Shown here in pieces: positions 1-62,386 of a stretch of 64,000 nucleotides of DNA (position 1 is the stretch's first letter; every line of letters starts with the position of its first letter). The notes below the pieces were generated by a model. It was not told the DNA's origin, ran no database searches, and saw nothing but the letters and a program-made list of their open reading frames with translations. Source of the stretch: a virus. The position numbers were made by a program, and so were the translations under genes. The stretch is from IMG/VR virus record IMGVR_UViG_3300025674_000030, positions 1-64,000 of that record. One strand, written 5' to 3'.

Positions 1-1
1 T

Positions 2-6470: not shown

Positions 6471-6492
6471 AATAAAATCACCAAGGAAAAAA

Positions 6493-45062: not shown

Positions 45063-45242
45063 ATGAGAGAGTTGCTAGACGATAATCCCGTCTATTTTAT
45101 TTGCTTAGCTTTAGGGGTTTATATCCCGACAGCCCTGATTTTTATTTCGGTTGTGAATCTTTTTGAAGAGGCTGAAGAAAAACCACAACCGATAGTTGAA
45201 AACTTATATGTTTCAGATGTTTGTGAACAGGAGATTAAATGA
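45063..45242 (+). CDS. Small membrane protein
   Basis: One hydrophobic helix (VYFICLALGVYIPTALIFISVV). Has an SD and promoter upstream, and an ATGA overlap downstream. Confidence 0.6.
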   Translation: MRELLDDNPVYFICLALGVYIPTALIFISVVNLFEEAEEKPQPIVENLYVSDVCEQEIK

Positions 45243-48200
45243 AGATCGCCCATATTGCTGATACTCACATCAAAAACTTGAAGTATCATGAAGACTATCG
45301 CACTTGCTTTGAGCAAATGTACCAGATCTTGCGCGAGCAGAAAGTAGACTATATCGTTCATTGCGGCGATATTGCCCATACAAAAACCCAGATCTCTCCA
45401 GAGTTTGTTGAGATGGCTACCGATTTGTTTAACAATCTTTCTGGGATTGCTAAAACCTATGTCATTCTTGGCAACCATGATGGGAATCTAAAGAACAGCA
45501 ACAGACAAGATGCTATTACGCCTATTGTGCAAGCTATCGACAATGATGACTTAATTCTTTTGAAAAAGGCAGGCGAAATAGAAATTGAGCCCGGTGCGAC
45601 TATTAATGTATTGTCTGTCTTTGATCGTGATAACTGGACTCAGCCAACCGATGTGGACAAGATTAACATTGCCCTATATCATGGTGCGATTTCAAATTGT
45701 CAAACAGATGCTGGCTGGACTATGGAGTTTGGCGAAGATGAGCTTTCTATTTTTGATAAGTTCGATTTTGCCATGCTTGGGGACATTCACAAGCGACAGT
45801 TCCTTGATGATGCTGGTCGTGTATACTACGCAGGCTCAACAATTCAGCAAAACCATGGAGAGAGTAACGACAAGGGTTTCTCTGTTTGGACAATCAACTC
45901 GAAAAATGATTGGAATGTAGAGCATTTTACACTAGAAAACCCGCGTCCTTTTGTTACAGTCGAGTTAACCTCTACGGGAAAGTTGCCACGTAACACCAAG
46001 ATTCCAACAGGGGCTAGACTTCGCATTGTAAGTGACAACAACCTGCCACTTGATGTGATGCGCAAAGCGGTTGGTGTCGCTCGTCATAAGTTTAAGCCAG
46101 AATCGATTTCTTTTCTTAATCGAGCAGCAGGTCAACGTGGTAACGTAGAGGAAATCTCCGATGGTCTTGGCGCAGCGAACCTGCGTGATCCAGAGATTCA
46201 ACAAGAATTGATATCTGAGTACCTCAAGGATTACCAAGTTAAGTCTGATGTTATGGCCAAGATTTACAGACTGAATGCAACTTATAACGAAAAGGTTGAA
46301 GCCAATGAGGATATTACCAGAAACGTCAACTGGAAGCTAACAAAGTTTGAGTGGTCGAACTTGTTTAACTATGGTGAAAACAATTCTGTCGATTTCAACA
46401 ACATCAATGGCATTACGGGAATCTTTGGTAAAAACTTTTCTGGTAAATCATCAATCATTGATTCCATTTTGTTTACAATATTCAATACAACAAGCAAGAA
46501 CGAGCGCAAAAATGTTAACGTTGTAAACCAAAACCGCAACTGGGGTGAAGGAAAAGCAACGATCAAAATCGGACAAAAGACATACACCATTCATCGTAAG
46601 GTTGAAAAGTATGAAAAGAAGTCAAAGGGTCAGATTACCACTGAAGCGAAAACTCATCTTGATTTTTCCGTCTATGACGCTATATTGGACGAAACAACTT
46701 CTCTAAATGGAACAACGCGCAACCAGACTGATGCCAATATTCGCAAGCAGCTTGGTACGATAGAAGATTTTCTTATCTCCTCTATGTCTTCTCAGCATGG
46801 AGCACTTGCGTTTATCAACGAAGGCTCTACCAAGCGTAAGGAAATTATTGCAAAGTTTCTTGATTTGGAGTTTTTTGACAAGAAGTTTAAGTTTGCAAAA
46901 GATGAAGCACAAGACTCTAAGTCTCTAATCAAAAAACTACAAGGTCGTGATTATGATAAGGAGTTAAAGGAAGCAAAAGCTCTCTTGGCATCACACAAAG
47001 ACGAGATAACAAAGGTCGAGACTAAAGAGAAAAATCTACAGTCAAAGCTGAAGTTTGCCCGTAACAAAGAACTTGAGTTATCACTTACTATCTCTAGTGC
47101 CCCAACAGAGGTAATCGATGTTCAGGTAATCCAATCTGAGACAAAAAAGACAAGAAATAAGATAATTTCTTTGTCTGATTCTATCATTGATGATGGTAAC
47201 GCACTACATAGTGAAAGAGAGCGACTAAAAAAGATTAGCGATCTTATCCATACTTTGGATTATGATAGGCTTTCTGGCTCTCTCGTATCCATCGAGGAAG
47301 CAGAACAGCTTCTAAAAGAGCAGACGCAAAAGTTAGAGGTAGCGACAGAGAAGAAGAAGTTATTAGAAGATATTCCTTGTGGAACAAACTACCCTACTTG
47401 TAAGTTTATCCGTGACGCCCATGTTGCCACAGCAGTTATTCCAGAAATGGAAAGCGATATTGATAAGCTACAGACTACTCTATCTGGCTTAAATCCAGAA
47501 TTGGTTAGAGACCATCTAGACAAGTATCGAAAGCTTGAAAAAAAGCAAGTCGAAACGACAAATCTTATTAAGGATTTGCAGTTGGGTATTGAGAGAAAGA
47601 GGTCCGCGCTCGAAAGGCTGAACAACACCATTGAAGGTCTTGCGGACAAGCAAAATTTGTATGAAGAAAACAAAGAGGCTATCGAGAACTTAGAAAAACT
47701 AATAAAGGAGAAAGAACTATATGCCCATCAATCCAAGTCCCTTGAGGAACAAGTTGAGCGAGCTTCGCAAGAAAAGATTAATCTTTACAAGCTCATCGGC
47801 TCAGAAGAACAACGAATCGAAAGCATCAAAGAACAGCAAGTAGAATTCCAAAAAATTGAATCAGAGTATTCAGCGTATGATTTATTCTTGCGCTGTATGC
47901 ACCCCAATGGTATTGCTTATGATATTATTAAGCAAAAGCTGCCAATCATCAACGAAGAGATCGCAAAGATTCTATCAAATGTGGTAGACTTTGAGATCTT
48001 CTTTGAGACATCTGGCAATAAGTTTGATATTTTTATTAAGCACTCTAAGCACGAAGCACGCCCAATTGAAATGGCTTCTGGGGCAGAGAAGACTATGGCT
48101 GCTATGGCTATTCGCCTTGCGCTACTATCCGTCTCTTCATTGCCCAAGAGCGATCTATTTATTTTGGACGAGCCCGGCACTGCTTTGGACGAAGAGAATA

Positions 48201-48346
48201 TGGCTGGATTTATTCGGATCTTGGAACTAATTAAGGTGTATTTCAAGAACGTCTTGCTGATTTCTCACCTTGATTCTCTCAAGGATTGCGTAGATATGCA
48301 GATTGTGATTGAGAAAGAAGCAGGTTTTGCAAAGGTAAATCAATGA
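45239..48346 (+). CDS. Fused Mre11/SbcD nuclease - Rad50/SbcC ATPase (T4 gp47+gp46-like)
   Basis: N-terminal phosphoesterase motifs ADTH, CGD, GNHD, HG, GDIH. Then Walker A GKNFSGKSS, a long coiled coil, signature SGAEK, Walker B/D-loop ILDEPGTALD and H-loop ISH. Confidence 0.92.
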   Translation: MKIAHIADTHIKNLKYHEDYRTCFEQMYQILREQKVDYIVHCGDIAHTKTQISPEFVEMATDLFNNLSGIAKTYVILGNHDGNLKNSNRQDAITPIVQAIDNDDLILLKKAGEIEIEPGATINVLSVFDRDNWTQPTDVDKINIALYHGAISNCQTDAGWTMEFGEDELSIFDKFDFAMLGDIHKRQFLDDAGRVYYAGSTIQQNHGESNDKGFSVWTINSKNDWNVEHFTLENPRPFVTVELTSTGKLPRNTKIPTGARLRIVSDNNLPLDVMRKAVGVARHKFKPESISFLNRAAGQRGNVEEISDGLGAANLRDPEIQQELISEYLKDYQVKSDVMAKIYRLNATYNEKVEANEDITRNVNWKLTKFEWSNLFNYGENNSVDFNNINGITGIFGKNFSGKSSIIDSILFTIFNTTSKNERKNVNVVNQNRNWGEGKATIKIGQKTYTIHRKVEKYEKKSKGQITTEAKTHLDFSVYDAILDETTSLNGTTRNQTDANIRKQLGTIEDFLISSMSSQHGALAFINEGSTKRKEIIAKFLDLEFFDKKFKFAKDEAQDSKSLIKKLQGRDYDKELKEAKALLASHKDEITKVETKEKNLQSKLKFARNKELELSLTISSAPTEVIDVQVIQSETKKTRNKIISLSDSIIDDGNALHSERERLKKISDLIHTLDYDRLSGSLVSIEEAEQLLKEQTQKLEVATEKKKLLEDIPCGTNYPTCKFIRDAHVATAVIPEMESDIDKLQTTLSGLNPELVRDHLDKYRKLEKKQVETTNLIKDLQLGIERKRSALERLNNTIEGLADKQNLYEENKEAIENLEKLIKEKELYAHQSKSLEEQVERASQEKINLYKLIGSEEQRIESIKEQQVEFQKIESEYSAYDLFLRCMHPNGIAYDIIKQKLPIINEEIAKILSNVVDFEIFFETSGNKFDIFIKHSKHEARPIEMASGAEKTMAAMAIRLALLSVSSLPKSDLFILDEPGTALDEENMAGFIRILELIKVYFKNVLLISHLDSLKDCVDMQIVIEKEAGFAKVNQ

Positions 48347-49473
48347 GTAATGAGTTCGATTTTCTGCCACCAGCAGAAGCACCCCCATCATTCAACCAAG
48401 AAAAAGACCACTTCCACGAAGAAGTAGAAGCGGAAGACTTTGGTATGGTTGAGGACTTCGGATTACAGATGGAATACTCTGACGAAGATATGCTACCCGA
48501 GAACACAGCCCCATCATCTTTGAATGTGGGTTTTGTTGGTGTTGGTGGCGGCGGCAATAAGATGGTCAATGCTATGATTGAGTTGGGTTTCAACAAGACC
48601 CTGATGGTTAATAGCACCGGTAAGGACATACCGAAGAACGTAGAAGAAGAGCACGTCGTTCTTATTCCCGATAGCGATGGCATCGGCAAGAACATCGCCT
48701 ACGGCAAAGAAATCCTAACACAGAACGGCGCTATTGTAGAAGACGCTCTGCGTATCAAGTTTGGTAAGGTTGATTGGTTGTTCGTGATGGCAGGTGGTGG
48801 TGGTGGCACTGGTTCGTCCGTAGTAGCACTACAGCCCGTCTTTGAGCGCTACCTACAATCTGTTCAGGCAAGCGGCAAGGTTGTCTACATTGTCTCTTGG
48901 CCAACAGCGCAAGAGAACCTAAACCCAACCATTGCCAAGAACGCCCTATCACTACTCAATGATGTAACTCCTTATCCACACATTGTTCTAGATAACGAGC
49001 GCTCTACACGCCTCCTGCGTGGTCGTATTGGTATGCTTGGAATGTACCCAGTAGCCAACACCCAGTTTTCAAAGATCTTCGCGCAGATACTCAAGTTGTC
49101 TACCGAAGACTCTCCAATACAATCTTTTGACTCCAAGGACTTAGAGACTTGCTTTGGCAAGGACGGTCGTGCCTTTATTGGTTCCACAATGATTAAGGAT
49201 CCCAATACTGGTAAGTTGGGTACCACCATAATGCACAACTGTATGAACCGCTCTGCTTGCCCACCACCCAAGGGCAAGGCCGCAGCAGGCTCTCTTATCC
49301 TTGTAGTCAGCGAAGAAATGGTTGCCGACCCTCGCGTATCTAAACACCTTGAGTCTGCGATTGCTTATGTTGGCGGTCGCTGCGAGACACTTTTCTCTGG
49401 TGTTTATGTCAGAAAGAATGTTCCCGGACTGATTGCGATACTAAGTATGAATGGGATCGAGAAAGGAAAGTAA
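48343..49473 (+). CDS. Tubulin/FtsZ-family GTPase (PhuZ/TubZ-like)
   Basis: VGVGGGGNK (T1), GIGKN (T3), GGGGGTGS (T4 signature), LDNE, and T7-like SFDSKD. Confidence 0.88.
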   Translation: MSNEFDFLPPAEAPPSFNQEKDHFHEEVEAEDFGMVEDFGLQMEYSDEDMLPENTAPSSLNVGFVGVGGGGNKMVNAMIELGFNKTLMVNSTGKDIPKNVEEEHVVLIPDSDGIGKNIAYGKEILTQNGAIVEDALRIKFGKVDWLFVMAGGGGGTGSSVVALQPVFERYLQSVQASGKVVYIVSWPTAQENLNPTIAKNALSLLNDVTPYPHIVLDNERSTRLLRGRIGMLGMYPVANTQFSKIFAQILKLSTEDSPIQSFDSKDLETCFGKDGRAFIGSTMIKDPNTGKLGTTIMHNCMNRSACPPPKGKAAAGSLILVVSEEMVADPRVSKHLESAIAYVGGRCETLFSGVYVRKNVPGLIAILSMNGIEKGK

Positions 49474-49477: not shown

Positions 49478-49921
49478 ATGAAAGTCACCAAGTCACAACT
49501 AAAACAGATTATCTTAGAAGAGCTTGAAGTTGTGCTCACTAATGAAGAAGTTGAAGAGATGTTTGGCGAGGAGGTTCGCAAAGAAGTGGAAGAAGGTCTT
49601 TTTGGTGGCGAACTTGATGTATCGATGAAAAAATCCCCTCAACGTGGCAAAGTTCATTCAAAAACTAGCCGAGAAGAGGAGCGGTTGCAAAGATTTCTTG
49701 ACTCTGTAACAGCGAATATAGAAAACGAAAAGCAAAAAAGAAGCATTACTAACAAAATAATAGCATTCTTGAATGCAGAAAAAGAACAACTAAAGAAAGA
49801 TTTCATGATCCCAGAGCAGGAAAATAATCCTTGGGCTATTTGCACAGCTTCTGTGGGTCGCGAAGATAAAGAAAAATATGAAAAATGCGTTAAAAGCGTA
49901 AAAAGGAGAAACAAAAAATGA
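49478..49921 (+). CDS. Small protein with shared N-terminal MKxTK motif (putative head-internal protein)
   Basis: Starts MKVTKSQLKQIILEEL. C-terminal NPWAICTASVG...KYEKCV. Confidence 0.65.
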   Translation: MKVTKSQLKQIILEELEVVLTNEEVEEMFGEEVRKEVEEGLFGGELDVSMKKSPQRGKVHSKTSREEERLQRFLDSVTANIENEKQKRSITNKIIAFLNAEKEQLKKDFMIPEQENNPWAICTASVGREDKEKYEKCVKSVKRRNKK

Positions 49922-50196
49922 AAATCACAAAGACTAGACTAAAGCAGATTATCAAAGAGGCATTAGATGATATATCTTCTGATGATGTTCTTGGTCGTAC
50001 CGAGCCAAGATATTTTGATGATGAAGGCGAGCGCGCTTTTGATCCCTCTGATGCTCGTGATCTTAGAGATAGATTGGTAAAAGCTATTAGATCCGGGGCG
50101 TTCGATAGCCTATCAGATGAGAACATGGAGTTTGCAAGGAGGCTTTTCGGCCCTGCTTTTGACGATCTAAGAAAGCAATATGGCAGAGGACAATAG
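49918..50196 (+). CDS. Small protein with shared N-terminal MKxTK motif
   Basis: Starts MKITKTRLKQIIKEAL. AGGAG SD and ATGA overlap. Confidence 0.65.
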   Translation: MKITKTRLKQIIKEALDDISSDDVLGRTEPRYFDDEGERAFDPSDARDLRDRLVKAIRSGAFDSLSDENMEFARRLFGPAFDDLRKQYGRGQ

Positions 50197-50200
50197 ACTA

Positions 50201-50755
50201 ATGAAAATCACAAAATCAGAACTTTTCAATCTCATTAAAGAGGAGATTATGTCCGAGATGGATGTCCTCACTATGATGGATGACCCAAACGATGATTCTC
50301 AAGAGCCAGAATCTTTCAAAGATATGGATCAGGTAGCCGAGATGATGGAGAACGCTGTTCTTACTTCTATGGATAGTCCAATCGCTTTGATCTCAAACTT
50401 CCTTGTGACAACGCAGGGAGGACATGAGACACCAACAGAACTTGTGAGAGAAGGTATGCAAATGCTCCATCAAGCAGGTTTCCGTGAGCCTGATGCCAGT
50501 GTTATTGAAAAAATGATAAAAGATGAAATGGACAGTGGATATTACGACACTACCTATTACGCCGACGGCGAAGGTGTAGCGCCGATGCCCACTGATGATC
50601 GGCACTTGAGAGAGGGTATGGAAAACATTACCCCAGAAAATATGCAACTCGTTATGGATGCAATGAAAAAGATGGCGCCTCTAGTTGGAGCTATATCTCT
50701 ACCAGTTTTAATTGGTCTTATTTATGATCAGTTTAGGAAAATGGGTGCCAAATGA
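50201..50755 (+). CDS. Protein with shared N-terminal MKxTK motif and C-terminal hydrophobic segment
   Basis: ATG 50201 gives MKITKSELFNLIKEEI. C-terminal LVGAISLPVLIGLIY. Confidence 0.65.
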   Translation: MKITKSELFNLIKEEIMSEMDVLTMMDDPNDDSQEPESFKDMDQVAEMMENAVLTSMDSPIALISNFLVTTQGGHETPTELVREGMQMLHQAGFREPDASVIEKMIKDEMDSGYYDTTYYADGEGVAPMPTDDRHLREGMENITPENMQLVMDAMKKMAPLVGAISLPVLIGLIYDQFRKMGAK

Positions 50756-50955
50756 TGAGCAAAGAACAAAAGCAAGCACTACTCGATAGGGGCATACAAA
50801 AACTAACTTCCCGCAAACTACTTGTGTGGCTTACTGCTACAGGTCTTATGGCTTGGGGCGGCCTAGAATCAGCAGACTGGGTTATCATATCTGGTCTTTA
50901 TCTCGGTGGTCAGTCTGTGATTGACGCTATTGTAAAACTCAAGGGACTTGAGTGA
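50752..50955 (+). CDS. Putative holin
   Basis: 67 aa, with SRK preceding two hydrophobic segments and a basic C-terminus. Confidence 0.45.
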   Translation: MMSKEQKQALLDRGIQKLTSRKLLVWLTATGLMAWGGLESADWVIISGLYLGGQSVIDAIVKLKGLE

Positions 50956-51332
50956 AAGAGAAAATCCTAGCATTTTGCTTAAAACACTGGAAGGAGATCG
51001 GGCTTGTCCTGCTCCTTCTTGTTGTCTTTGGTAAGTCACAATATGATGTACGCAACATAATCAAAGCGCATGAGATTGCCGAACAGTCCTTAAAAGATCA
51101 GATAAGCACCCTACAATCCCTCCACACCGAAGAGTTGCGCCTGCGCGATGAAGCCCTTGAACGCTACCGCATAGAGATAGAAGAGTTGGAGTTGGAATAC
51201 GAAGCACGACAAGCCGAAATAAAAGACTTAACGAGAGCAGAAAAAGAAGTTATAATAAAAGAGTTCAAACAAGACAAGGCCCTGATTATACAGCGCTTTG
51301 AAGAAACCTACGGATTAAGATATGTTGAATAG
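50952..51332 (+). CDS. N-terminally anchored coiled-coil protein (i-spanin-like)
   Basis: TM helix IGLVLLLLVVFG followed by a long heptad-rich region. GTG start overlaps the holin-like stop. Confidence 0.45.
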   Translation: MKEKILAFCLKHWKEIGLVLLLLVVFGKSQYDVRNIIKAHEIAEQSLKDQISTLQSLHTEELRLRDEALERYRIEIEELELEYEARQAEIKDLTRAEKEVIIKEFKQDKALIIQRFEETYGLRYVE

Positions 51333-51732
51333 TCTAATACTGCTTGTTATACTCTCAACTGCAAGTGCCGAAGACTTTACTGTCCTCTCTGAAAATCAAC
51401 CCGCTCCATTCGAGGGTGTTTTACTTAGTGTTCCTGCTGCCGCAGAAATATTAGCCAAACAAGAAGAAACACAGATGCAGTGTGAGCTTGAAATAGAGTT
51501 TCAGCTTGATAAGGCGGGAACTCAATGTAAGCTCGATAAAGAACTCCTTGAGGCACGTATCTCAACGCTTGAAAACCAATATACCGAGATTATAGCACAA
51601 AAAAATCTTGTTATTGATAAGCAGCAAGAAATCATCAAGAAGCAGGCACCGCATCGTAAGTGGTTGTGGTTTGCTGGCGGTGTTGTACTTGGTGGCGCCA
51701 CTTATTACGGAATTCAACAGGCAGCAAAATGA
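51322..51732 (+). CDS. Secreted coiled-coil protein with C-terminal hydrophobic anchor (spanin-like?)
   Basis: SPase I-type signal peptide (LILLVILSTASA|ED), coiled coil, C-terminal WLWFAGGVVLGGATYYGI. Confidence 0.45.
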   Translation: MLNSLILLVILSTASAEDFTVLSENQPAPFEGVLLSVPAAAEILAKQEETQMQCELEIEFQLDKAGTQCKLDKELLEARISTLENQYTEIIAQKNLVIDKQQEIIKKQAPHRKWLWFAGGVVLGGATYYGIQQAAK

Positions 51733-52277
51733 AGCACACTAACTTACCATTTCATCTTTATGTGTGGGTTAACAACAAATACCTTGGCCCTAAAATGCCT
51801 GAAGGCTATACATATGCCCTGTGGCACGGTATTCATTCAAGAGAGGGACAAATCCCCATGGCTCACGTTTTGTTAGAAAGTGGTGCTCACTGGTCTGGTT
51901 TGCCACTACACGCTATGTCTAACTTCCACGGCCCAAGCACTTGGGAAGAGAAGCCACACGGCGATTTAATACCTTGGACTGCTATGGGCCCAGACATAGA
52001 GGCGTGGCACGCAAAGTATCTTGAAGGACTTGAGGTAGAGCTATTTCGCTATGGATGGAAAGGCAAACATACAGGCATAATAATCGACTGGACTAATGGA
52101 TTTGACAGATACCCACAGGAGCACAAGCCTCTTAATCTTGTTTCTCTTGATGATGGGCAGTTTGCTTTACAGCCAAACAACTATTGTAGATTTAGAGATG
52201 ACCACTTTATAGACAAATCTAAGTTTGAACAAACCAAGTTCTATCGCAGAGGCGAAGAGGTTTGGTGGGGTCAATGA
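51729..52277 (+). CDS. Hypothetical protein
   Basis: ATG 51729 in an ATGA overlap. His/Trp-rich globular sequence (HGIHSREG, LPLHA, EHKP, QPNN). Confidence 0.65.
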   Translation: MKHTNLPFHLYVWVNNKYLGPKMPEGYTYALWHGIHSREGQIPMAHVLLESGAHWSGLPLHAMSNFHGPSTWEEKPHGDLIPWTAMGPDIEAWHAKYLEGLEVELFRYGWKGKHTGIIIDWTNGFDRYPQEHKPLNLVSLDDGQFALQPNNYCRFRDDHFIDKSKFEQTKFYRRGEEVWWGQ

Positions 52278-52654
52278 GCAAAGATCCAGATTACATTGTA
52301 AGAGTAGAACAAGCTATTGCTGACAAGTATGGTGACGAAGCAATCCAGAACCCCAAAGCAGAATGGGACGAGAACAAAGAGAAAGTCTATCTGGAGCAGA
52401 TGCGAGAACTCTACAAAAAGCAAAAGAAAAACGACGAAGCCAACGATAAAGTAGAAGTAAATGGGATAAAGGTTTCAAGAAAACTACTTAATAGAGAATC
52501 CAAGACAGGGTGTCCTGTTTGTGGTGCTTTCTCACATTCTACCCGTGATGATGTATCGCTTGTAAAGTTTGACTGCTGCTACAAGTGCTATATCAAGTGG
52601 GTTGATGGGAGAGAAGAGCGCTGGAATAACGGGTGGAGACCCAAACAAAACTAG
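52274..52654 (+). CDS. Zinc-finger-like hypothetical protein
   Basis: CPVC...CCYKC. ATGA overlap start. Confidence 0.65.
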   Translation: MSKDPDYIVRVEQAIADKYGDEAIQNPKAEWDENKEKVYLEQMRELYKKQKKNDEANDKVEVNGIKVSRKLLNRESKTGCPVCGAFSHSTRDDVSLVKFDCCYKCYIKWVDGREERWNNGWRPKQN

Positions 52655-52656
52655 CA

Positions 52657-52666
52657 ACTACTTATT
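52657..52666 (+). promoter_or_regulatory. Putative phage late-promoter motif (ACTACTTATT)
   Basis: Intergenic variant 16 nt before ATG 52683, at the head of the run leading to TerL and portal. Confidence 0.4.
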
Positions 52667-52682
52667 TCAAAGGAACACTACT

Positions 52683-53231
52683 ATGGCAACAGTTTACGAA
52701 ATCGTTCAGGGCTTGTCGCAAGCCGCTGCAAATGCTTATGATGGAGCAATGACCGAAGAGGGAGAGCCCGTAAAGGCAGGGCTAAAGAGAGAAGAGGGCA
52801 ACCCCCTTATTGATAAGCGCGTTATGGATGGCTTCAATGTCAAGTTCCACGGTAATATCATGCGTCTCTCTTATATGTCCGAGGTTACCTTGAAGGAAGT
52901 TTATGCAAGCGGATTTGAATCTGAGGTTGAGTCACAGATGAATGAGATAGTAAAGTTTCTCAAGAAGGAGGCTCGCAAGATTACTGGCACCACTCCATCG
53001 CTAACAAAACAGGGGGAGATTGATATTCGTGTTGAGAATTCATCTCGTGTGCGCTCTTGGGTTACCGCCTGTTTAGAGTACAAGGTTGGTGGAATGGAAG
53101 AAGTTGCTGTTGTTGGAGAAGCTACCGAGGACAAGCTTGCCGCTGGCTGGGAAGCCTTTATGAAGCAGGGCGGCCTTGGAACTCGCCCAAAGAACGATAA
53201 GAGACCTAAGAACTCAGGAGACAAGAAGTGA
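52683..53231 (+). CDS. Hypothetical protein
   Basis: ATG 52683 after an AAGGA SD. 182 aa. Confidence 0.65.
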   Translation: MATVYEIVQGLSQAAANAYDGAMTEEGEPVKAGLKREEGNPLIDKRVMDGFNVKFHGNIMRLSYMSEVTLKEVYASGFESEVESQMNEIVKFLKKEARKITGTTPSLTKQGEIDIRVENSSRVRSWVTACLEYKVGGMEEVAVVGEATEDKLAAGWEAFMKQGGLGTRPKNDKRPKNSGDKK

Positions 53232-53425
53232 AAGTTACAAAAACCTTACTAAAGCAAATAATCAAGGAAGAGCTTGAAGAAATGCAGGGCACTGACTCAA
53301 TGCGTGATTTTGAAACCGAAATTGGCGTTTTGATCGAAAAGGCAATAGCCCTCGCAATGGAGGCTAGATTATCAAGAGTTGAAGATATTCTTACTTCTGC
53401 TCACGAAGAGTTAATGGGTCTATAG
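53228..53425 (+). CDS. Small protein with shared N-terminal MKxTK motif
   Basis: GTG start giving MKVTKTLLKQIIKEELEE. Confidence 0.6.
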   Translation: MKVTKTLLKQIIKEELEEMQGTDSMRDFETEIGVLIEKAIALAMEARLSRVEDILTSAHEELMGL

Positions 53426-53434
53426 TGGGTATGA

Positions 53435-55015
53435 ATGCCAAGATTAACGAAAAAGCAAATACTCAAAGAAGTCGTTAAATGCGGCAAAGATCCATCTTAT
53501 TTCCTCAAGAACTATGCCCGTATATCTCACCCGATGCACGGGCTTATGTTATTCAACACATTTGATTATCAGGACGAACTCCTAAAAGACTTCAACGACT
53601 ACCGTTTTAATATCATCAACAAAGGTCGTCAGTTGGGTATCTCAACGATTACTGCTGGCTACATTGTTTGGATGATGTTGTTTCATCGAGACAAAACCAT
53701 TCTTGTCATGGCAACTAAGTTTGAGACAGCAGGCAACTTGGTCCGAAAAGTCAAAAACATTATGAAGAACCTTCCTGACTGGATCAGAATTGCAAATATC
53801 ACAACCGACAACCGCACGTCCTTTGAGTTGTCTAATGGCTCTTCTATCAAGGCTGCCTCCACTTCTGGCGATGCTGGTCGCTCTGAGGCACTATCGCTTC
53901 TTGTTCTTGACGAGGCTGCACACATTGAAGGTCTAGAAGAGTTGTGGACTGGTCTGTACCCGACACTATCTACTGGTGGTCGTTGTATCGCCATCTCTAC
54001 ACCAAATGGTGTTGGTAACTGGTTCCACAAAACCTGCACAGGCGCCGAAAGCGGAGAAAACAACTTCAATCTAACGACGCTGATGTGGTGGGTTCATCCC
54101 GAAAGAGATGAAGAATGGTTCAAGAAAGAAACCAAAAATATGTCCAAGAGGCAGATTGCACAGGAGTTGGAGTGCAACTTCAATACTTCGGGTGAAACTG
54201 TTATCGATCCAGAGAATATGGAATGGATTATGTCCAACATTAGAGAACCAAAACATAAAACTGGATTTGATAGAAACTTTTGGATCTGGGAAGAGTATGA
54301 TCCAAGCTGCAACTATCTCATGTCAGTAGATGTAGCAAGAGGCGATGGTGCAGATAGTTCTACATTTCATATCCTTAAGCTTGAAACTATGGAAATTGTT
54401 GGTGAGTATATGGGTAAGCCAACTCCCGATTTGTATGCTAATATGCTAAATCAGGTTGGTAGAGAGTTTGGAAACTGTATGCTGGTCGTAGAAAATAACT
54501 CTATTGGCTATACTGTCATAGATAAATTAATAGAGTATGGCTATCCCAACCTCTACTATTCGATTAAATCTACACACGAATATATTGATCAACATCTTGG
54601 CGAACACAGGACAGGTGCCGTTGCTGGTTTTTCCACAACAAGCAAGACTAGACCGCTCATTGTTGCCAAGCTAGAAGAGTTTGTAAGAAACAAACTAGTT
54701 AAGACGTATTCTTCACGTTTGGCAAACGAGTTCCGTACTTTTATTTGGTATAACGGGAAGCCACAAGCCATGAGGGGCTACAACGATGACTTGGTGATGG
54801 CTCTTGCGATTTGTTGCTGGGTGCGGGACACAGCCTTGCAAACAAACGCACGAGACTTAAACTACCAAAAAGCGTTCGTTGATTCAATCATGACTTCAAG
54901 GACTACCCTAAACACGCAAATAAAAGGACAAATTGGCTACACAGGAGAAGATACCACAAGTAGAATGAACGAAGCAAAAAACCTATATTCCCAATACATG
55001 TGGATAATAAAGTGA
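53435..55015 (+). CDS. terL: Terminase large subunit (T4 gp17-like)
   Basis: DYQ, Walker A-like GRQLGIST, Walker B LVLDEAAH, ISTPNG, nuclease VDVARG and NDDLVMA. Confidence 0.95.
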   Translation: MPRLTKKQILKEVVKCGKDPSYFLKNYARISHPMHGLMLFNTFDYQDELLKDFNDYRFNIINKGRQLGISTITAGYIVWMMLFHRDKTILVMATKFETAGNLVRKVKNIMKNLPDWIRIANITTDNRTSFELSNGSSIKAASTSGDAGRSEALSLLVLDEAAHIEGLEELWTGLYPTLSTGGRCIAISTPNGVGNWFHKTCTGAESGENNFNLTTLMWWVHPERDEEWFKKETKNMSKRQIAQELECNFNTSGETVIDPENMEWIMSNIREPKHKTGFDRNFWIWEEYDPSCNYLMSVDVARGDGADSSTFHILKLETMEIVGEYMGKPTPDLYANMLNQVGREFGNCMLVVENNSIGYTVIDKLIEYGYPNLYYSIKSTHEYIDQHLGEHRTGAVAGFSTTSKTRPLIVAKLEEFVRNKLVKTYSSRLANEFRTFIWYNGKPQAMRGYNDDLVMALAICCWVRDTALQTNARDLNYQKAFVDSIMTSRTTLNTQIKGQIGYTGEDTTSRMNEAKNLYSQYMWIIK

Positions 55016-55022
55016 GAAAATA

Positions 55023-57014
55023 ATGGCACCAAAAAATCCAAAGCAAGGTGGAAACCCCGCCAACAGACAGTCGCAGTTATTCAAATCTCTTACAAGACTC
55101 TTTTCAGGCCCTATCGTTAGTTACCGTTCAGAGTCTGGTCGTAAGATTCGTAGACAACATTTGGATAAATACTCAACCAGATTCAAATCAGCATCTGGGC
55201 AACAGTTCAAAAAGCAGTCTTATAATCCTTTAGATACAATCGCTGCAAACGCTATTGCAAACCAGCGTCGCTCAGAGCGCTACATTGACTTTGATCAAAT
55301 GGAGTACATGCCTGAGTTGGCCTCCGCTCTTGATATATACGCAGATGAAATGACTACATTTTCTGCACTTTCTCCAATGTTGAATATTAAGTGTCGCAAT
55401 GATGAAATCAAGGCAGTCCTCAACATTCTTTACCACAACGTAATGAATATAGAGCACAACCTCTTTGGCTGGTGTCGTACAATGTGTAAGTATGGCGATT
55501 TCATTATGTATCTGGATATTGATGAGAACGAAGGTATTCAGTCTACGATTGCCCTTCCTTTACAGGAAGTTGAAAGACTGGAAGGTCTTGATGCCACAAA
55601 CCCAAACTATGTTCAGTATCAGTGGAACTCTGCTGGGATGACATTTGAGAACTGGCAGGTTGCACATTTCCGAATCCTCGGTAACGACAAATATTCACCA
55701 TACGGCACTTCTGTACTAGAACCTGCCCGTCGTATCTGGCGCCAACTAACCCTTATGGAAGATGCCATGATGGCATACCGTATCGTTCGTTCTTCTGAGC
55801 GAAAGGTGTTCAAGATTGATGTTGGTGCTGTTCCTCCACAGGAAGTTGAGCAGTTTATGCAAAAGATTGTATCTCAGCTAAAACGCCACACAATTGTTGA
55901 TAAAGATACTGGTCGCATTGATTTGCGATATAATCCACTGTCAATCGAGGAGGACTACTATATTCCTGTTCGCGCCGGCTCTGTGACAGATATTCAAAAC
56001 CTTGGTGGTGGACAAAACACAACCGCTATTGATGATATCAAGTATCTTCGTGACAAGATGTTTTCTGCCATCAAGATACCACAGGCTTATCTCACAATGG
56101 GCGAGGGTGCCCAAGAAGATAAGACTACACTTGCCACCAAGGACATTCGCTTTGCGCGTACCATTCAGCGCCTACAGCGTTCTGTTCTGCATGAGTTAGA
56201 GAAGATTGGTATTATTCACCTCTATACTCTTGGATATAGAGGCGAGGATCTTCTAAACTTTAAACTTGCACTCAATAACCCAAGCAAGATTGCTGAGCTA
56301 CAAGAGTTGGAGCATTGGAAGAACAAGTTTGATATTGCGGCCTCTGCAACCGAAGGTTATTTTTCTCGTCGCTGGGTTGCTGATAATATTTTTGGCATGT
56401 CTCATGAAGAGTTCCTGCGCTGTCAGCGTGAACAGTTTTATGATCGCAAGCATGACACAGCACTTGAGGGCGTTGCAGAAGTACCAGTAGAAGAATCCGG
56501 CGGTGGTGGTGGGCTTGATCTTGGCGGCGGCGAAGGCGGCGAGCTTGATCTTGGGGGTGCCCCAGAGGGCGAGGTCGATCTCGGAGCCGATGATACTGGT
56601 GCTGAAGAAACAGGTGGCGGCGAAGAGTCTGCACTTTTGGCAGAACCTCCCGGCTCTCGTGATTCTCCACGCCTTGCAAAATCACTAGGTAGCCGTGCCA
56701 GAACAGGAAAAAAATATGTCACCAAGAAATCCAAAGGCAAAGCCTACCAGAAGGTAGCCGTAGATAAGCGCCCTGCTGGTGCCAGAAGTAGAAACTATTC
56801 AAGTATCCCAACTCCCGAAATGAACACATATAGAACTAACAATCTTGGTGCTCCTGAGTTAAGATCTTTGTCTAGAGGTATTTATGAAGACAAAGACTCT
56901 ATTTACCAAAGAGAACAAAAAGAAGAACAGGCTCTTCTTGAGGTTAATAGCTCTGTCAAGTTCTTAATAGAATCATTAGAAACAAAAGCTACGGAGAATA
57001 AAGATGAAGAATAA
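55023..57014 (+). CDS. Portal protein (T4 gp20-like) with long low-complexity C-terminal tail
   Basis: LMEDAMMAYRIVRSSERKVFKIDVG, EDYYIPVR, DIKYLRDK and DIRFARTIQRLQ are gp20-type motifs. Follows TerL. Confidence 0.92.
   Translation: MAPKNPKQGGNPANRQSQLFKSLTRLFSGPIVSYRSESGRKIRRQHLDKYSTRFKSASGQQFKKQSYNPLDTIAANAIANQRRSERYIDFDQMEYMPELASALDIYADEMTTFSALSPMLNIKCRNDEIKAVLNILYHNVMNIEHNLFGWCRTMCKYGDFIMYLDIDENEGIQSTIALPLQEVERLEGLDATNPNYVQYQWNSAGMTFENWQVAHFRILGNDKYSPYGTSVLEPARRIWRQLTLMEDAMMAYRIVRSSERKVFKIDVGAVPPQEVEQFMQKIVSQLKRHTIVDKDTGRIDLRYNPLSIEEDYYIPVRAGSVTDIQNLGGGQNTTAIDDIKYLRDKMFSAIKIPQAYLTMGEGAQEDKTTLATKDIRFARTIQRLQRSVLHELEKIGIIHLYTLGYRGEDLLNFKLALNNPSKIAELQELEHWKNKFDIAASATEGYFSRRWVADNIFGMSHEEFLRCQREQFYDRKHDTALEGVAEVPVEESGGGGGLDLGGGEGGELDLGGAPEGEVDLGADDTGAEETGGGEESALLAEPPGSRDSPRLAKSLGSRARTGKKYVTKKSKGKAYQKVAVDKRPAGARSRNYSSIPTPEMNTYRTNNLGAPELRSLSRGIYEDKDSIYQREQKEEQALLEVNSSVKFLIESLETKATENKDEE
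56499..56588 (+). repeat. Three imperfect 30-nt tandem repeats in the portal tail encoding Gly/Glu-rich [LV]DLG units
   Basis: CTTGATCTTGG at 56514 and 56544, GTCGATCTCGG at 56574 (30-nt period). Confidence 0.7.
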
Positions 57015-57834
57015 GCACAATAAGAAGAGAAATACAGCCTTTGTATTTGAAGCGCTTGCAAGAGAAGCAACTGTGGCAATTGTAAAGGGCGATCAGGAGC
57101 GTAAAGCCAAGGTTGTTTCAATTGTTCGTAAGCACTTTACCGGCGACTCTCTTCTGAAGAAAGACCTTGAGTGCTATCGTTCACTTTACGAAAACCAAAA
57201 TCTTGACAAGAACACAAGCCAAAAGATTCTTGAAGCAGTGATGGCAGCAAAGCGCTTAATCGATCCAGATGGCCTTTTTAAGCAGCAGACCGAAGTTATC
57301 AATGATATCAACAAAGAACTAACTCCTGCTACTTTTAACAATTTTGTTCCCAACTATAAGGCACTTGCCACCATTGCAAAAATGTTTAATACTGATTCAC
57401 CAAAGCAAAAGGTAATGCTTGAAGAGAAAATAATAGAAGGTATGTCTGGAACTCTTATAGAACATACTATGCAGCCCATCGATAGTATTACTTTTGCAAC
57501 TTTTACCAAGAAATTTAATGACAAATATAGCTCCTCTTTATTAAAAGAGCAAAAAGAACTAATAAATCATTACATATCATCTTTTGCAATTGATGATTTA
57601 GAAACTAAAATTTACCTCAACCGCGAACTTGGTCGCTTGAAAGAAAGCTTAGAGAAGGCAACTGAGGTAGAAGAGGTTGCTTCTGATCAAGAGATGATCA
57701 ATAAAACGAAGTTGGTCAAAGAGCGGCTCGAATCACTTTCTGGCGACACAACTCTTACAGAAGCAACCCTCTTCACAATTTTGAAAACTCAAGAACTCGT
57801 AAAGGAAATCTACGACGATGGCAGTAACAGTTAG
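57004..57834 (+). CDS. Hypothetical head-module protein
   Basis: KHNKKRNT N-terminus, helical, with many [LI]xE sites. Overlaps the portal stop. Confidence 0.65.
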   Translation: MKNKHNKKRNTAFVFEALAREATVAIVKGDQERKAKVVSIVRKHFTGDSLLKKDLECYRSLYENQNLDKNTSQKILEAVMAAKRLIDPDGLFKQQTEVINDINKELTPATFNNFVPNYKALATIAKMFNTDSPKQKVMLEEKIIEGMSGTLIEHTMQPIDSITFATFTKKFNDKYSSSLLKEQKELINHYISSFAIDDLETKIYLNRELGRLKESLEKATEVEEVASDQEMINKTKLVKERLESLSGDTTLTEATLFTILKTQELVKEIYDDGSNS

Positions 57835-58390
57835 AATTGTTCCAATCCCAGAGCCCGTTAAGGTTACAATCAAGCCTAAAGCTCCTCCTCCTAAAGTAAC
57901 TTTAGAGCTAGACATTCGCAAGTCTCTTAGTGGCGATCTAATGATTTTTGATCATGGTGACATTGATATTGTTTTATCTGGTAAAGACAAGAAGATTACT
58001 GCGTTCCCCAAGCAAACACAAACTGATTTTACCTATGGCGCCCAAAATCGTTTGTTTAGTCATCTTGCTAGAAAGGGCATCGTCATTCCTGAGTCTATTC
58101 AGGGCGGTTCATTTTATGGCGCCATGGAAGCATCTCTACAAGAAGCAGCAGATGGCAAACTAAACGCCGCCAAGTTTGCACTCATAAGCATTGAGAAGTT
58201 CATAAAAGAAGAGAAGCCATACTATGAACATGTAGAAGCTATTGTTGGCAGTACCGAGGACGAATATATTAATCCCGACAAGACTGACTCTACTGAGCTT
58301 GGCGAAGTCCCACAGCGCGACGAGCAAGGTTCTATCCGAAAGGGCTATGTCCGAGATCCTTACACCTTCTCTTACATGTATACAATATAG
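57818..58390 (+). CDS. Hypothetical protein
   Basis: 190-aa ORF with a Pro-rich N-terminus and an AAGGA SD. Confidence 0.65.
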   Translation: MAVTVRIVPIPEPVKVTIKPKAPPPKVTLELDIRKSLSGDLMIFDHGDIDIVLSGKDKKITAFPKQTQTDFTYGAQNRLFSHLARKGIVIPESIQGGSFYGAMEASLQEAADGKLNAAKFALISIEKFIKEEKPYYEHVEAIVGSTEDEYINPDKTDSTELGEVPQRDEQGSIRKGYVRDPYTFSYMYTI

Positions 58391-58398
58391 GAGGTTAC

Positions 58399-58740
58399 AT
58401 GGAGATAGTTTTATTTATTCTTTTTGCTTACGGACTAACACAAATATTAGTCTATAGTGATATGCCAATCCTAAAAAGATTAAGGCCAAGCAAAGAATCC
58501 TACAGGGGCTATGGCAAGGTGTTTCATTGCCCCATGTGTATGGGATTTCATGTTGGTTGGTTTTTGTGCCTTCTTTCTCCTTGGACAGAACTATTTACGT
58601 TTGATGTTACAATAGTTAATGCTTTTTTGCTTGGCTGTCTTTCGTCTGCGACTTCTTATGTTTTAAACATGGTGTTCTCTGACGAAGGAATCATGATAAA
58701 GCACAACTACAAGCATGAAAACTATTTTGGAGAAGAATAA
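58399..58740 (+). CDS. Membrane protein with CxxC (DUF1360-like)
   Basis: Three hydrophobic segments and CPMCMGFHVG. GGAGG SD. Confidence 0.6.
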   Translation: MEIVLFILFAYGLTQILVYSDMPILKRLRPSKESYRGYGKVFHCPMCMGFHVGWFLCLLSPWTELFTFDVTIVNAFLLGCLSSATSYVLNMVFSDEGIMIKHNYKHENYFGEE

Positions 58741-58985
58741 TGAAAATCACAAAAAGCAGACTAAGACAGATAATCAAAGAAGAACTTCTTAAAGAAATAA
58801 AAGAAGGCGAAGAAATTGAAATGTCTGATCTTTATGCTGACTATGGTGAAGATCCAATCGAAGCACTACAGAAAAGAAGAGATGAGTTGGAACCTAGGCT
58901 GCGCACAGCAAAAGATGCTGAGTATTACATGAAGCTAACCAGAGAAATTGTGAGGCTAAAGCTTGAACGGGAGAAACAACAATGA
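58740..58985 (+). CDS. Small protein with shared N-terminal MKxTK motif
   Basis: Starts MKITKSRLRQIIKEELLKEIKE. Confidence 0.65.
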   Translation: MKITKSRLRQIIKEELLKEIKEGEEIEMSDLYADYGEDPIEALQKRRDELEPRLRTAKDAEYYMKLTREIVRLKLEREKQQ

Positions 58986-59047
58986 ACAACTTTCTACTAT
59001 CTAAGTGGGGACTACAGCCAGTCCGTCGTTGTTGCAAGGGCTCCTAG
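58982..59047 (+). CDS. Putative 21-aa peptide MNNFLLSKWGLQPVRRCCKGS
   Basis: ATGA overlap with the upstream stop, GGAG upstream, TAG at 59045-47. Below the ORF-track cutoff. Confidence 0.45.
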   Translation: MNNFLLSKWGLQPVRRCCKGS

Positions 59048-59052
59048 CTCGC

Positions 59053-59067
59053 GCGGGTAACGCCCGC
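59053..59067 (+). other. GC-rich RNA hairpin GCGGG-UAACG-CCCGC
   Basis: Perfect 5-bp GC stem, 5 nt after the TAG and just before the SD of ORF 59082. No U-tract. Confidence 0.5.
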
Positions 59068-59081
59068 ACAAAGGAAAACAA

Positions 59082-59312
59082 ATGAAACTCATATTAGAAA
59101 ACTGGAACAATTTTGTTAACGAAGAGGGGGAACTCGAAGAGGCAATGGCAAAAAATATCAAAGCTGAAAAATTGCCAAACGGTTTCTATCGTTTTTATGA
59201 TTATGAATCACAGTTATCAGGTCTTTATAATCCCGACGGCACAATGCGAAGCGGAGACCTTAACCTAAATAAGAAATTTGTTCAAACAAAAATATTGGAA
59301 CTAACAAAATGA
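59082..59312 (+). CDS. Small protein with MKLILE N-terminus
   Basis: AAGGA SD. N-terminus MKLILENW parallels the protease N-terminus MKLLRE. Confidence 0.6.
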   Translation: MKLILENWNNFVNEEGELEEAMAKNIKAEKLPNGFYRFYDYESQLSGLYNPDGTMRSGDLNLNKKFVQTKILELTK

Positions 59313-59908
59313 AACTACTAAGAGAATACTACGAACTATGTGAAGGCGGCGTATGCCAAGACCTTCTTACCGAAGACGAGAAGCGCTTTGTTTCCAACGG
59401 TGGCATGATGCTTACAGGCAAACTACAAGAGGCTGACGTGCAAAACGGCAACGGTCGTGTCTATCCTCTTAAGGTTTTAGCCAGAGAAGTGCAAAACTAC
59501 CAGAAGCTTGTAAAAGAAAATAGAGCGCTTGGCGAACTAGATCACCCAGACGATTCTGTTATCAATCTAAAAAACGCTTCTCACATGGTTACAGCTATCT
59601 GGATGGAAGACAAAGCTGTCATGGGTAAGGTCAAGGTTCTTAACACTCCGTCAGGTCAGGTTCTTAAGTCTCTAGTAGAGTCGGGTGTCAAGCTTGGCAT
59701 TTCTTCTCGCGGTATGGGCTCTGTGTCTGAAGCTGCTGGCAACGTGGTTGTCCAAGAAGACTTCCAGCTTATCTGCTTTGACTTTGTGTCTGAGCCATCT
59801 ACACCAAATGCTTTTATGATGCGTGAGGCAAAAGAATATAACAATAGAGTATTTACAAAAGCAGATCGCATTAACAGACTATTAAATGAGGTATTAAAAA
59901 ATGAATAA
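59309..59908 (+). CDS. Prohead maturation protease (T4 gp21-like)
   Basis: NGNGRVYP, ALGELDHP, ASH, TPSG, LGISSRGMGS and DFVSEPSTPNA. Confidence 0.93.
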   Translation: MKLLREYYELCEGGVCQDLLTEDEKRFVSNGGMMLTGKLQEADVQNGNGRVYPLKVLAREVQNYQKLVKENRALGELDHPDDSVINLKNASHMVTAIWMEDKAVMGKVKVLNTPSGQVLKSLVESGVKLGISSRGMGSVSEAAGNVVVQEDFQLICFDFVSEPSTPNAFMMREAKEYNNRVFTKADRINRLLNEVLKNE

Positions 59909-60599
59909 AGCAGATTTACAAAAAATTCTATTGGAAGAAATAGGGACTGCAATAAACGAAGAGGAGCTTGATGAACAGAGTTTCCTCAAAAGAGTTGCCT
60001 CTGCCATGAAGAGAACGAGACGAGGCGATGAAAGAAGGGCACAAAGAGCCAAAGCAAGGCGCAAAGGTGCTGGCGCCGTGGATGATGCTGGCGAAGCTCC
60101 CGAAGATGTAAGCCCCCCAAAACCAGCAGCAAAAGAAACAAAAACTGTATCTTTATTTAAAGATATTATGCCAGAAGTTATAAATGATCATGGTCGCTCT
60201 ACAGAGCAGAAGATCCGTATTAGAGCCAAATTTACAAAACTAGGAAAGGCTCTGAAGAGGGATAGAATTTTAAATAAAGAAATATCATCTTCTAAGAAAG
60301 AAGAAGCTAAAAAGCGAAGACGTGCTGCTGCCGAAAACATAAAATCATTAAAACAAGCTATGAGTAGGGCAATAGAAAAGGAGAGCAGAAAAGCAATAAG
60401 AGCAAATACCGATATGGGTTCTTACAAAACCCCCGAACAAGCCAAGCAAAAGGTAAGCGAGGAACTGGCTAAACTTTTTCAAGATGATGCAATCGTAAAT
60501 CAAATTCTATCTTTTATTGATGATGATATGAGGCTAACCGAATCATTACTAACAAGAGTTGTACTTGAAAATCTCAAGGGCAACAAGGTGGTGTTGTGA
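59901..60599 (+). CDS. Basic, Lys/Arg-rich protein with degenerate N-terminal motif
   Basis: Starts MNKADLQKILLEEI...LDE, followed by highly basic stretches. Confidence 0.6.
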   Translation: MNKADLQKILLEEIGTAINEEELDEQSFLKRVASAMKRTRRGDERRAQRAKARRKGAGAVDDAGEAPEDVSPPKPAAKETKTVSLFKDIMPEVINDHGRSTEQKIRIRAKFTKLGKALKRDRILNKEISSSKKEEAKKRRRAAAENIKSLKQAMSRAIEKESRKAIRANTDMGSYKTPEQAKQKVSEELAKLFQDDAIVNQILSFIDDDMRLTESLLTRVVLENLKGNKVVL

Positions 60600-61027
60600 A
60601 CAAAGCACAGCTAAAATCTCTAATCAAGCCAGTTGTTAAAGAGTGCATTCAAGAAGTCCTAATAGAAGAAGGGCTTCTTACAGAGGTGGTCTCACAAGTT
60701 GCGGCTGGTATGTCCAAGCAACCAATTGTCGAGAATAAGCCAAAGAAAAAGAACAACAATCTATTTAATGAAGACTTGCAAATGCAACGCAAGTCCCGAG
60801 AGGCGAATAAGAAACTACAAGAGCATCGCAAAAAGCTACTAGACTCAATTGGTCAGGATGCATATAATGGTGTAGATCTTTTTGAAGGCACCGAGCCCAT
60901 GAGGGAATCGGGAACACCCGGAGTATCCCATAGGCCAAATGTCCTAGGTGATAACCCAAGCGATGCAGGAGTAGATATCTCTTCCCTAATGGGACAAGCA
61001 AACAAAGTTTGGCAAGCACTTAAATAG
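60596..61027 (+). CDS. Hypothetical head-module protein with degenerate N-terminal motif
   Basis: GTG start giving MNKAQLKSLIKPVVKECIQEVLIEE. Confidence 0.6.
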   Translation: MNKAQLKSLIKPVVKECIQEVLIEEGLLTEVVSQVAAGMSKQPIVENKPKKKNNNLFNEDLQMQRKSREANKKLQEHRKKLLDSIGQDAYNGVDLFEGTEPMRESGTPGVSHRPNVLGDNPSDAGVDISSLMGQANKVWQALK

Positions 61028-61736: not shown

Positions 61737-62369
61737 ATGGCTCAATTTGGATGGGCATACGTCAACTGTAACGACTCTAATCTTGGTGCCGATATGGGCA
61801 TCAGGTACGTTTCTGGCTCTGCCGTAACTGCTTCGTCTACATTTATCTATGATATAGATAATAACAAGGTTACACTAGACGGAGACATAGAGATTAATGG
61901 TGCGGTTACGGCAAGCTTCTTTGTTGTAGATGAAACCGAAGTTATCTCCGGTTCCACCATCTTCGGTAACACAGACGACGATACCCACCAAATGACTGGC
62001 TCTCTTTTTGTCGGACCCTCTGCTAGCGCCCCAGTTTTTAAAGTTGATGTCTACTCTAGCCAGTCAGTTACTACCGGCTTTAAGGTTGCTTATCGTTATT
62101 TGACAAGTTCTGGGCTTACCTCCTCCAATGAGAACTATATTATTGGTTTTGGTGGCTCTGGAGATTTAGAGTTTAGAGTACACTCTGCTTCTGTCGCTGG
62201 AGCCGGCGCCATTTTGATGATTAAGGATGAGGCCGCCAGTAGGGGCGGGACACTAACAATATCGGCTTCTTCTGGAGAGAACATAGACAATGATGGCTTC
62301 TATGAGCTATCCGGTTCTAACCCCGCTATCGGTCTCTACTCCAATGGCTCAAACTGGTTTGTGATATAA
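61737..62369 (+). CDS. Putative fibre/virion protein
   Basis: SGSTIFGNTDDDTHQMTGS and a C-terminal IKDE...IDND...LYSNGSNWFVI fibre-like domain. Confidence 0.55.
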   Translation: MAQFGWAYVNCNDSNLGADMGIRYVSGSAVTASSTFIYDIDNNKVTLDGDIEINGAVTASFFVVDETEVISGSTIFGNTDDDTHQMTGSLFVGPSASAPVFKVDVYSSQSVTTGFKVAYRYLTSSGLTSSNENYIIGFGGSGDLEFRVHSASVAGAGAILMIKDEAASRGGTLTISASSGENIDNDGFYELSGSNPAIGLYSNGSNWFVI

Positions 62370-62386
62370 ACTAAAGGAGCAATGCT

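Follow-up and report, generated by a model that had tools for sequence, protein, structure and literature searches.

The internal proteins of T-even phages are described in two sources (PMC12373910; PMC3012670) as having only an N-terminal leader in common, which directs their packaging, and as being encoded in a hotspot. The same sources present them as injected proteins, at least ten of which have been reported, and describe Ip1–3 as each inhibiting a GmrSD restriction enzyme. For T4, the capsid-targeting sequence (CTS) is given as MKTYQEFIAE and the internal proteins as highly basic (PMC8442874), and the prohead protease gp21 is described as cutting after Glu in I/LxE, with H85 and S140 as catalytic residues (PMC12991175). 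In this study we analyzed a window of 64,000 bases, the first part of one viral contig of 72,646 bp (IMG/VR record IMGVR_UViG_3300025674_000030), in which five otherwise unrelated open reading frames (ORFs) open with the same short peptide. We consider it rather likely that this peptide is a leader of the T4 CTS kind, which would target proteins to the capsid (prohead core) and be removed by a gp21-type protease after residue E14.

Similar to the T4 CTS and Ip1–3, the peptide is a short N-terminal leader on otherwise unrelated small proteins (the T4 ones being non-essential), it ends in I/L-x-E, the gp21 cut motif, and it accompanies a T4-type head module with a gp20 portal, a gp21 protease and a gp23 capsid protein, the last seen in relatives. 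By eye, the ending Φ-x-x-Φ-Φ-x-E (Φ, hydrophobic) is common to both, at residue 10 in T4 and at residue 14 here, a length at which no alignment statistic is possible. Like the T4 Ip genes, the leader genes occupy variable hotspots in a conserved genome, and the marine leader system appears to be the same arrangement as that of the T-even internal proteins in a distant clade. Different from T4, two interchangeable leader types are present, the body families number in the hundreds compared with about ten reported for T-even phages, and the bodies are mostly acidic whereas those of T4 are basic; the marine bodies include enzymes as well as multi-leader polyproteins. The slots of the marine system, which is known from sequence alone, also lie inside the head-gene block.

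In the giant phages phiKZ, SPN3US and 201phi2-1, N-terminal propeptides cut by a gp21-related protease are described as being thought to target the prohead, and the paralogues gp53 and gp54 as sharing an identical 15-residue N-terminus (PMC5694885). The marine leader resembles these propeptides in being N-terminal and in its proposed removal by a gp21-related prohead protease; however, the propeptides are mostly longer than 100 residues and end in A/S/G-x-E, whereas the leader here spans 14–16 residues and ends in I-x-E, and the giant-phage carriers are paralogues whereas the carriers here are unrelated bodies. Short portable peptides that address cargo to the inside of an HK97-fold shell also include the cargo-loading peptides of encapsulins and the C-terminal coat-binding helix of the P22 scaffold. 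Unlike the leader described here, these peptides stand at the C-terminus, stay uncleaved by a protease and come from different assembly systems.

A shared N-terminal leader on five unrelated proteins

The five ORFs, all on the + strand, open with MK[IV]TKxxLxxIIxEE and are unrelated afterwards. Three of them stand in a row between a tubulin/FtsZ-family gene and the conserved gene p67, at 49478..49921 (147 aa, MKVTKSQLKQIILEEL..., 33.1 bits against the leader profile), 49918..50196 (92 aa, MKITKTRLKQIIKEAL..., 32.2 bits) and 50201..50755 (184 aa, MKITKSELFNLIKEEI..., 26.4 bits). The fourth, at 53228..53425 (65 aa, 24.0 bits), has a GTG start and fills a slot just before the large terminase subunit (TerL) gene, and the fifth, at 58740..58985 (81 aa, MKITKSRLRQIIKEEL..., 34.8 bits), lies between p113 and the protease gene. 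The third ORF likely starts at ATG 50201 rather than at the upstream ATG 50180, because GAGGA is found upstream of 50201.

The leader profile was built from relatives and scanned over the contig and all 202 sources of this study. Only the five ORFs stand out in the 72,646-bp contig (24.0–34.8 bits), where the next best match reaches 4.8 bits, and the best match on reversed sequence from all 202 sources is 10.3 bits. A six-frame regular-expression scan likewise placed the motif only at the five ORF starts. The five bodies form five separate blastp clusters, with no Pfam match above the cut-off and no PHROG match; the body of the 49478 protein had four usable homologues. The description in the earlier note of a common start followed by unrelated sequence was therefore correct. 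Between pairs of the five, 10–19 of the 48 leader bases differ, with 3–8 synonymous codon differences per pair.

Two further genes had been proposed as degenerate copies of the leader, and neither belongs to the family. The 232-aa charged protein encoded 3′ of the protease gene (59901..60599, +) has a loosely leader-like N-terminus (MNKADLQKILLEEI) but no match to the profile, and no homologue of it was found among 119 leader-selected loci (E<=1e-5). The other, p143 (60596..61027, +), is a conserved 143-aa head-module protein that scores 0.3 bits and is syntenic in relatives.

Leader family in related viruses

A search of IMG/VR with the portal protein gave 597 confirmed relatives, from which 80 loci (812 kb) were kept. 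A regular expression that did not require a start codon matched 70 times in these portal-chosen loci, in all 70 cases at an ATG (65) or GTG (5) and on the strand of the portal gene. With the profile, 105 matches of at least 9 bits were obtained, all on a start codon and belonging to 56 body clusters. A strict back-translated DNA pattern was found in at least 120 viral stretches of IMG/VR, compared with a single match in 596 Gb of prokaryote genomes. That lone match is an 8-kb piece (L201) of a metagenome-assembled genome (MAG) contig labelled Opitutia bacterium, with six leaders of at least 15 bits (two type 1, four of the second type described below) and no recognised head gene in the 8-kb stretch. 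This piece probably comes from a phage and was binned with the MAG; as a hint at the host it is weak at best.

In total, related marine viral contigs contributed 202 sources, some of which overlap, with a combined length of 1.88 Mb. The earlier note had suggested a profile scan of the genome and of related phages; it returned five leaders in the contig, and 421 matches of at least 15 bits in the 1.88 Mb, 417 of which fall on a start codon, and none on reversed sequence. Every one of these 421 leaders shares its strand with the conserved (head) genes. They represent 380 distinct leader proteins with a median length of 113 aa, and the 361 bodies of at least 30 residues form 230 blastp clusters, 191 of them singletons. 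Among 5.8 billion proteins searched with the profile, 711 of the 8000 candidates scored reached E<=1, and the best 120 of these 711 are either of metagenome origin or NCBI records without a name. No match to the leader strings was found in a literature search.

Isolates related to these viruses are distant. The nearest isolate portals, those of Microcystis phage Mel-JY01 and Flavobacterium phage immuto, are 39% identical, and no near-identical DNA was found among isolates. In the cultured relative immuto, gene products 190 and 198 begin with short leader variants, and the variants recorded near the portal and protease genes are MKKSQLRQIIKEAL (gene product 190) and MKKSQIVKAVQEVLEE. A literature search found no virion proteomics for this phage.

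In 79 distinct leaders, I12 is present in 74 and E14 in 78, whereas residue 13 is variable (K in 60). The nearly invariant residues use two to five codons each; L8, for example, is encoded by CTT (35), CTA (23), TTA (9), CTC (7) and CTG (2). Synonymous codon variation at invariant residues therefore indicates that selection acts on the peptide, as the earlier note had argued from the five copies in the window. Its further suggestion that the shared 5′ DNA aids cassette shuffling fared less well, since exact shared runs between leaders are only 6–15 nt long and DNA identity is 79% within a locus versus 75% between loci.

By inspection, the leader lacks the layout of a Sec or Tat signal peptide, with charges at K2, K5, K9, K13, E14 and E15 and no hydrophobic run. 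AlphaFold2 predicts residues 5–33 of the 58740 protein to be helical, with a mean pLDDT of 92 in the first ten-residue block and 95 in the second. The helix proposed in the earlier note is thus confidently predicted, whereas its amphipathic character did not stand out: the hydrophobic moment of the leader is 0.95 against a mean of 0.81 for shuffled sequences, a value reached by 34% of shuffles and hence not significant.

Second leader type and internal copies

A second leader family (type 2, the leader described above being type 1) is represented in the window by the ORF at 59082..59312 (+; 76 aa, MKLILENWNNFVNEE...). Its consensus is MK[LK][LI][FM]ENW[RN]K[FY]LNE (short form MKLIMENWxKFLNE), and 72 distinct N-terminal copies were found on 55 body clusters. 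E6 and W8 show little or no variation, residue 12 is L, I or V in 68 of the 72, and E14 is present in 64. Six further type-2 copies are not at a start codon; one of them, two genes past the protease gene of L022, sits about ten residues from the ORF start. The earlier note had placed both the 59082 ORF and the protease itself in a second type of leader. This holds for the former, a member of the 72-protein family, but not for the latter, whose N-terminus, (M/MGK/MSK)KLLREYYELCEGG, is conserved in 49 of the 50 protease orthologues listed.

Types 1 and 2 both end in Φ-x-E at residue 14 and are hydrophobic at residues 8, 11 and 12. Eight type-2 bodies have homologues that bear the type-1 leader. 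In the clearest pair, the body of the 59082 protein is 75% identical over 56 residues to a type-1-tagged homologue in L020, with homology beginning just past residue 14, so that the leaders are exchanged at residues 14–15. As judged from these alignments, the two leader types are interchangeable on homologous bodies.

Eight of 477 leader-bearing open frames contain two in-frame leaders, and three internal copies have no start codon. Database proteins carry up to four leader copies (P0001, 997 aa), and P0029 and P0047 contain internal half-leaders (…IIKEEL…, for example) that lack MKITK. Internal copies that lack a start codon cannot serve as translation starts; they would fit processing sites in polyproteins.

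Leader slots in the head-gene block

As stated in the earlier note, leader genes are arranged around the genes for TerL (53435..55015, +; Pfam Terminase_6N, 2.4e-10), the T4-type portal of the gp20 family (55023..57014, +; Pfam Portal_T4, 6.4e-77) and the protease. Across the relatives they occupy a few fixed slots in a syntenic block of head genes, with 0–4 genes each and numbers that vary between close relatives. The main slot, with 83 leaders, extends from the tubulin/FtsZ-family gene (48343..49473, +; Pfam Tubulin, 4.7e-09), its upstream border, to p67 (50752..50955, +), a conserved 67-aa gene that forms its downstream border. The slots from p183 to TerL, from p113 to the protease gene and from the Mre11-Rad50 gene to the FtsZ-like gene hold 35, 28 and 23 leaders, respectively; all these counts include overlapping loci and are not de-duplicated.

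The linkage is also evident in loci that were picked by the leader alone, 66 of 119 of which contain a portal, protease or TerL homologue (27 of 42 among loci of at least 10 kb). An S77 protease is present in 10 of 14 large leader-selected records, and the four without it are 39–62% complete. In a 100%-complete relative of 196 kb, all three strong leaders are near the portal gene.

Protease and candidate cleavage site

The proposed leader remover is a prohead serine protease of the Peptidase_S77 family, T4 gp21 type (59309..59908, +; Pfam 6.3e-30; phrog_207, 9.9e-55; PDB 5jbl, 4e-15). Its His79 and Ser132 align to H85 and S140 of T4 gp21, where they fall on the two alanines of the inactive 5jbl construct (numbering offset counted by hand), and neither residue varies among 51 proteases of the clade. 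In the leader, near-invariant I12 and E14 flank the variable residue 13, and this P3-x-P1 pattern of I12-x13-E14 matches the I/LxE specificity of gp21 at the level of sequence. When the protease (51-row alignment) was modelled in complex with residues 1–40 of the 58740 protein (80 rows), each of two runs gave a score of 0.00, which speaks neither for binding nor against it. T4 gp21 is described as trimming nine residues from its own N-terminus (PMC9958956), and by analogy the LRE in the conserved N-terminus of the clade protease may be a self-cleavage site.

The motif [LI]xE is in excess in residues 1–62 of the major capsid protein (MCP; 5 versus 1.5 expected, z 3.4), in the protease (z 3.6) and in p143 (7 versus 1.7 expected, z 4.3), compared with z values of -1.0 to 1.4 in nine non-head controls. 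In the leader-protein bodies, the count of [LI]xE does not discriminate cargo from scaffold.

Bodies of the leader proteins

A domain scan of 150 cluster representatives identified known domains after the leader in few of them, and the rest are without a Pfam family. Among the recognised bodies are a leucine-rich repeat (LRR) protein (L135), a YkuD L,D-transpeptidase (L132), a GNAT protein with the type-1 leader (L089) and another with the type-2 leader (L116), a pentapeptide-repeat protein (L168, 3.3e-50) and a FliG_C domain. A DnaJ domain was found in one member of a leader-protein cluster (1.1e-14); the carrier is likely the 193-aa protein of L161, which has an HPD motif.

Genomic context

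CheckV estimates the 72,646-bp contig to be 40% complete, and its long ORFs are nearly all on the + strand. A gp22-like scaffold ORF begins at about 71.3 kb and the contig ends inside it. In relatives a Gp23-type MCP directly follows the scaffold; it was found in three of them, and the contig of the window stops short of it. The maturation site of the MCP could not be placed, as the PDB alignment to T4 gp23 begins at query residue 66. Scaffold and MCP of the clade (L205, L207) both start with MSS[LI][LI], which places [LI]xE at residues 4–6 or 5–7. In Flavobacterium phage immuto, the gene annotated as 'DNA polymerase phi-like protein' (immuto35A_203; L208 17000-18241; MW353176) stands between those for the protease and the capsid protein; its product starts like the clade scaffold and is therefore probably a misnamed scaffold.

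The tubulin/FtsZ gene is flanked by a Mre11-Rad50-like ORF (45239-48346) on one side and by the main leader slot on the other, an arrangement that is syntenic in relatives, with an FtsZ-like homologue in 30 of the 119 leader-selected loci. A tubulin is unusual for a T4-like phage of roughly 180 kb. One of the records studied (G003) has a leader island (L081 6124-10460, ~114–118 kb) that consists of tandem leader genes, including one two-leader frame, and two proteins of this island end alike (...SQTRVG and ...GQTRVG).

Positions 1-10749 (+) of the window hold a block of sugar-nucleotide and glycosyltransferase genes, including GT1/GT2, UDP-glucose dehydrogenase, epimerases, a cytidylyltransferase and a GlmS-like SIS/GATase protein; the GC content is 0.32–0.33 at 2–8 kb compared with about 0.42 elsewhere. 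Two giant ORFs follow on the same strand, at 14696-21070 (2124 aa, no Pfam match) and 24690-33575 (2961 aa). Fibre-like proteins with common termini are encoded at 61737-64000 of the window and at 64540-70518 of the contig (+). Two of them (62387, 69409) start with MAYN[AI]L, and four of the fibre-like ORFs, ending at 62369, 65763, 68144 and 70518, have a similar ...G(S)..(F/W)(F/Y)I(I/F) tail; the ORF at 65850-68144 consists of a long series of repeats of the form ...SLDTRVS..EES.R...

Proposed capsid targeting and alternative explanations

The earlier note had compared the shared N-terminus with a T4-style targeting leader that ends in a protease site. This comparison is supported by the cleavage motif, the T4-type portal and S77 protease, the slots on the head-gene strand, the exchange of leaders and the internal copies. 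In the mechanism we propose, a helical leader of about 14 residues (type 1: MKITKSQLKQIIKEE) would bring unrelated small proteins into the assembling prohead, and the gp21-type serine protease would remove it by cutting after Glu14 (…I12-x13-E14↓). The same protease would separate the fused multi-leader polyprotein cargoes. The bodies would then remain in the head, would probably be ejected with the DNA and may act as effectors, including anti-defence proteins. More tentatively, and with slightly less confidence than doubt, we suggest that a widespread lineage of uncultured marine T4-like phages may load a very large, fast-turnover set of proteins, among them J-domain, pentapeptide-repeat, GNAT, LRR and L,D-transpeptidase proteins, into its capsid via two interchangeable removable leaders, some of these proteins as polyproteins.

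Several observations weigh against capsid targeting by the leader. The argument for the presence of the tagged proteins in virions and for their cleavage is built from sequence. The candidate cleavage site sits within the confidently predicted helix. The bodies are not depleted in [LI]xE (563 versus 515 expected, z +2.5), although depletion might be expected of proteins that survive the protease, and 75% of them are net acidic, opposite to the highly basic internal proteins of T4. The leader is 14–16 residues long compared with about 10 for the T4 CTS and shows no homology to it beyond the seven-residue pattern. The T4 late-promoter motif TATAAATA occurs in none of 367 regions upstream of leaders, where enriched 8-mers seem to be the conserved ends of upstream genes. 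Finally, the leader island of G003 is a second one, about 90 kb from the portal gene, and no head gene stood out by eye among the ORFs of this stretch, for which no family search was run.

The small size of the bodies (median 113 aa), their mostly acidic charge, the slight enrichment rather than depletion of [LI]xE in them and the position of their genes within the head module would also suit expendable accessory proteins of the prohead core or the scaffold, comparable to T4 gp67 and gp68, that would be targeted to the core by the leader and then degraded and expelled, with nothing delivered to the host; T4 gp21 is described as degrading gp22, gp67 and gp68 (PMC9958956). Such accessories would be expected to be conserved, yet 191 of the 230 body clusters are singletons and the slots of close relatives hold between none and four genes. 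Some bodies are moreover enzymes or interaction domains (GNAT, YkuD, J-domain, pentapeptide repeat, LRR), and we regard this explanation as unlikely. The leader might instead be a docking helix for another phage hub, such as the adjacent tubulin/FtsZ-like protein or a compartment for replication or assembly, with no link to the capsid, given that the largest slot lies directly 3′ of the FtsZ-like gene and that the second island of G003 is far from head genes. However, P3 and P1 are invariant and P2 varies, in agreement with the protease motif, further slots precede TerL and the protease gene, and the internal copies in polyproteins are better explained as processing sites, which makes a docking role improbable.

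Common descent rather than a portable tag would also account for the tandem gene arrays and for codon identity that is slightly higher within a locus (0.66) than between loci (0.58): a single paralogous family might keep its N-terminal helix while its C-termini diverge fast. The unrelated Pfam domains on the bodies and the occurrence of either leader type on homologous bodies render this very improbable. It is still harder to view the 5′ end as a nucleic-acid element for translation initiation or recombination with an incidental peptide. The start is A-rich and codon bias exists at some positions (Q7, CAA 37 versus CAG 2; E14, GAA 70 versus GAG 8), but invariant residues use two to five synonymous codons, exact shared DNA is limited to 6–15 nt, internal copies lack a start codon, and the type-2 leader differs in sequence while keeping the same residue spacing. 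We consider such an element extremely unlikely. The capsid-targeting leader thus remains the explanation that we prefer.

Implications

If this interpretation is true, the leader would be a sequence handle with which the injected-protein repertoire of these phages could be read straight from metagenomes. It would mark candidate injected host-takeover or anti-defence proteins in ocean viromes and might serve as a portable packaging tag for these capsids. The two leader types and the polyproteins would provide many natural examples from which to deduce what the CTS receptor of the prohead core recognises. The logic of the T4 CTS would then recur in an abundant uncultured marine clade that has its own leaders and hundreds of unrelated bodies, none of which are annotated.

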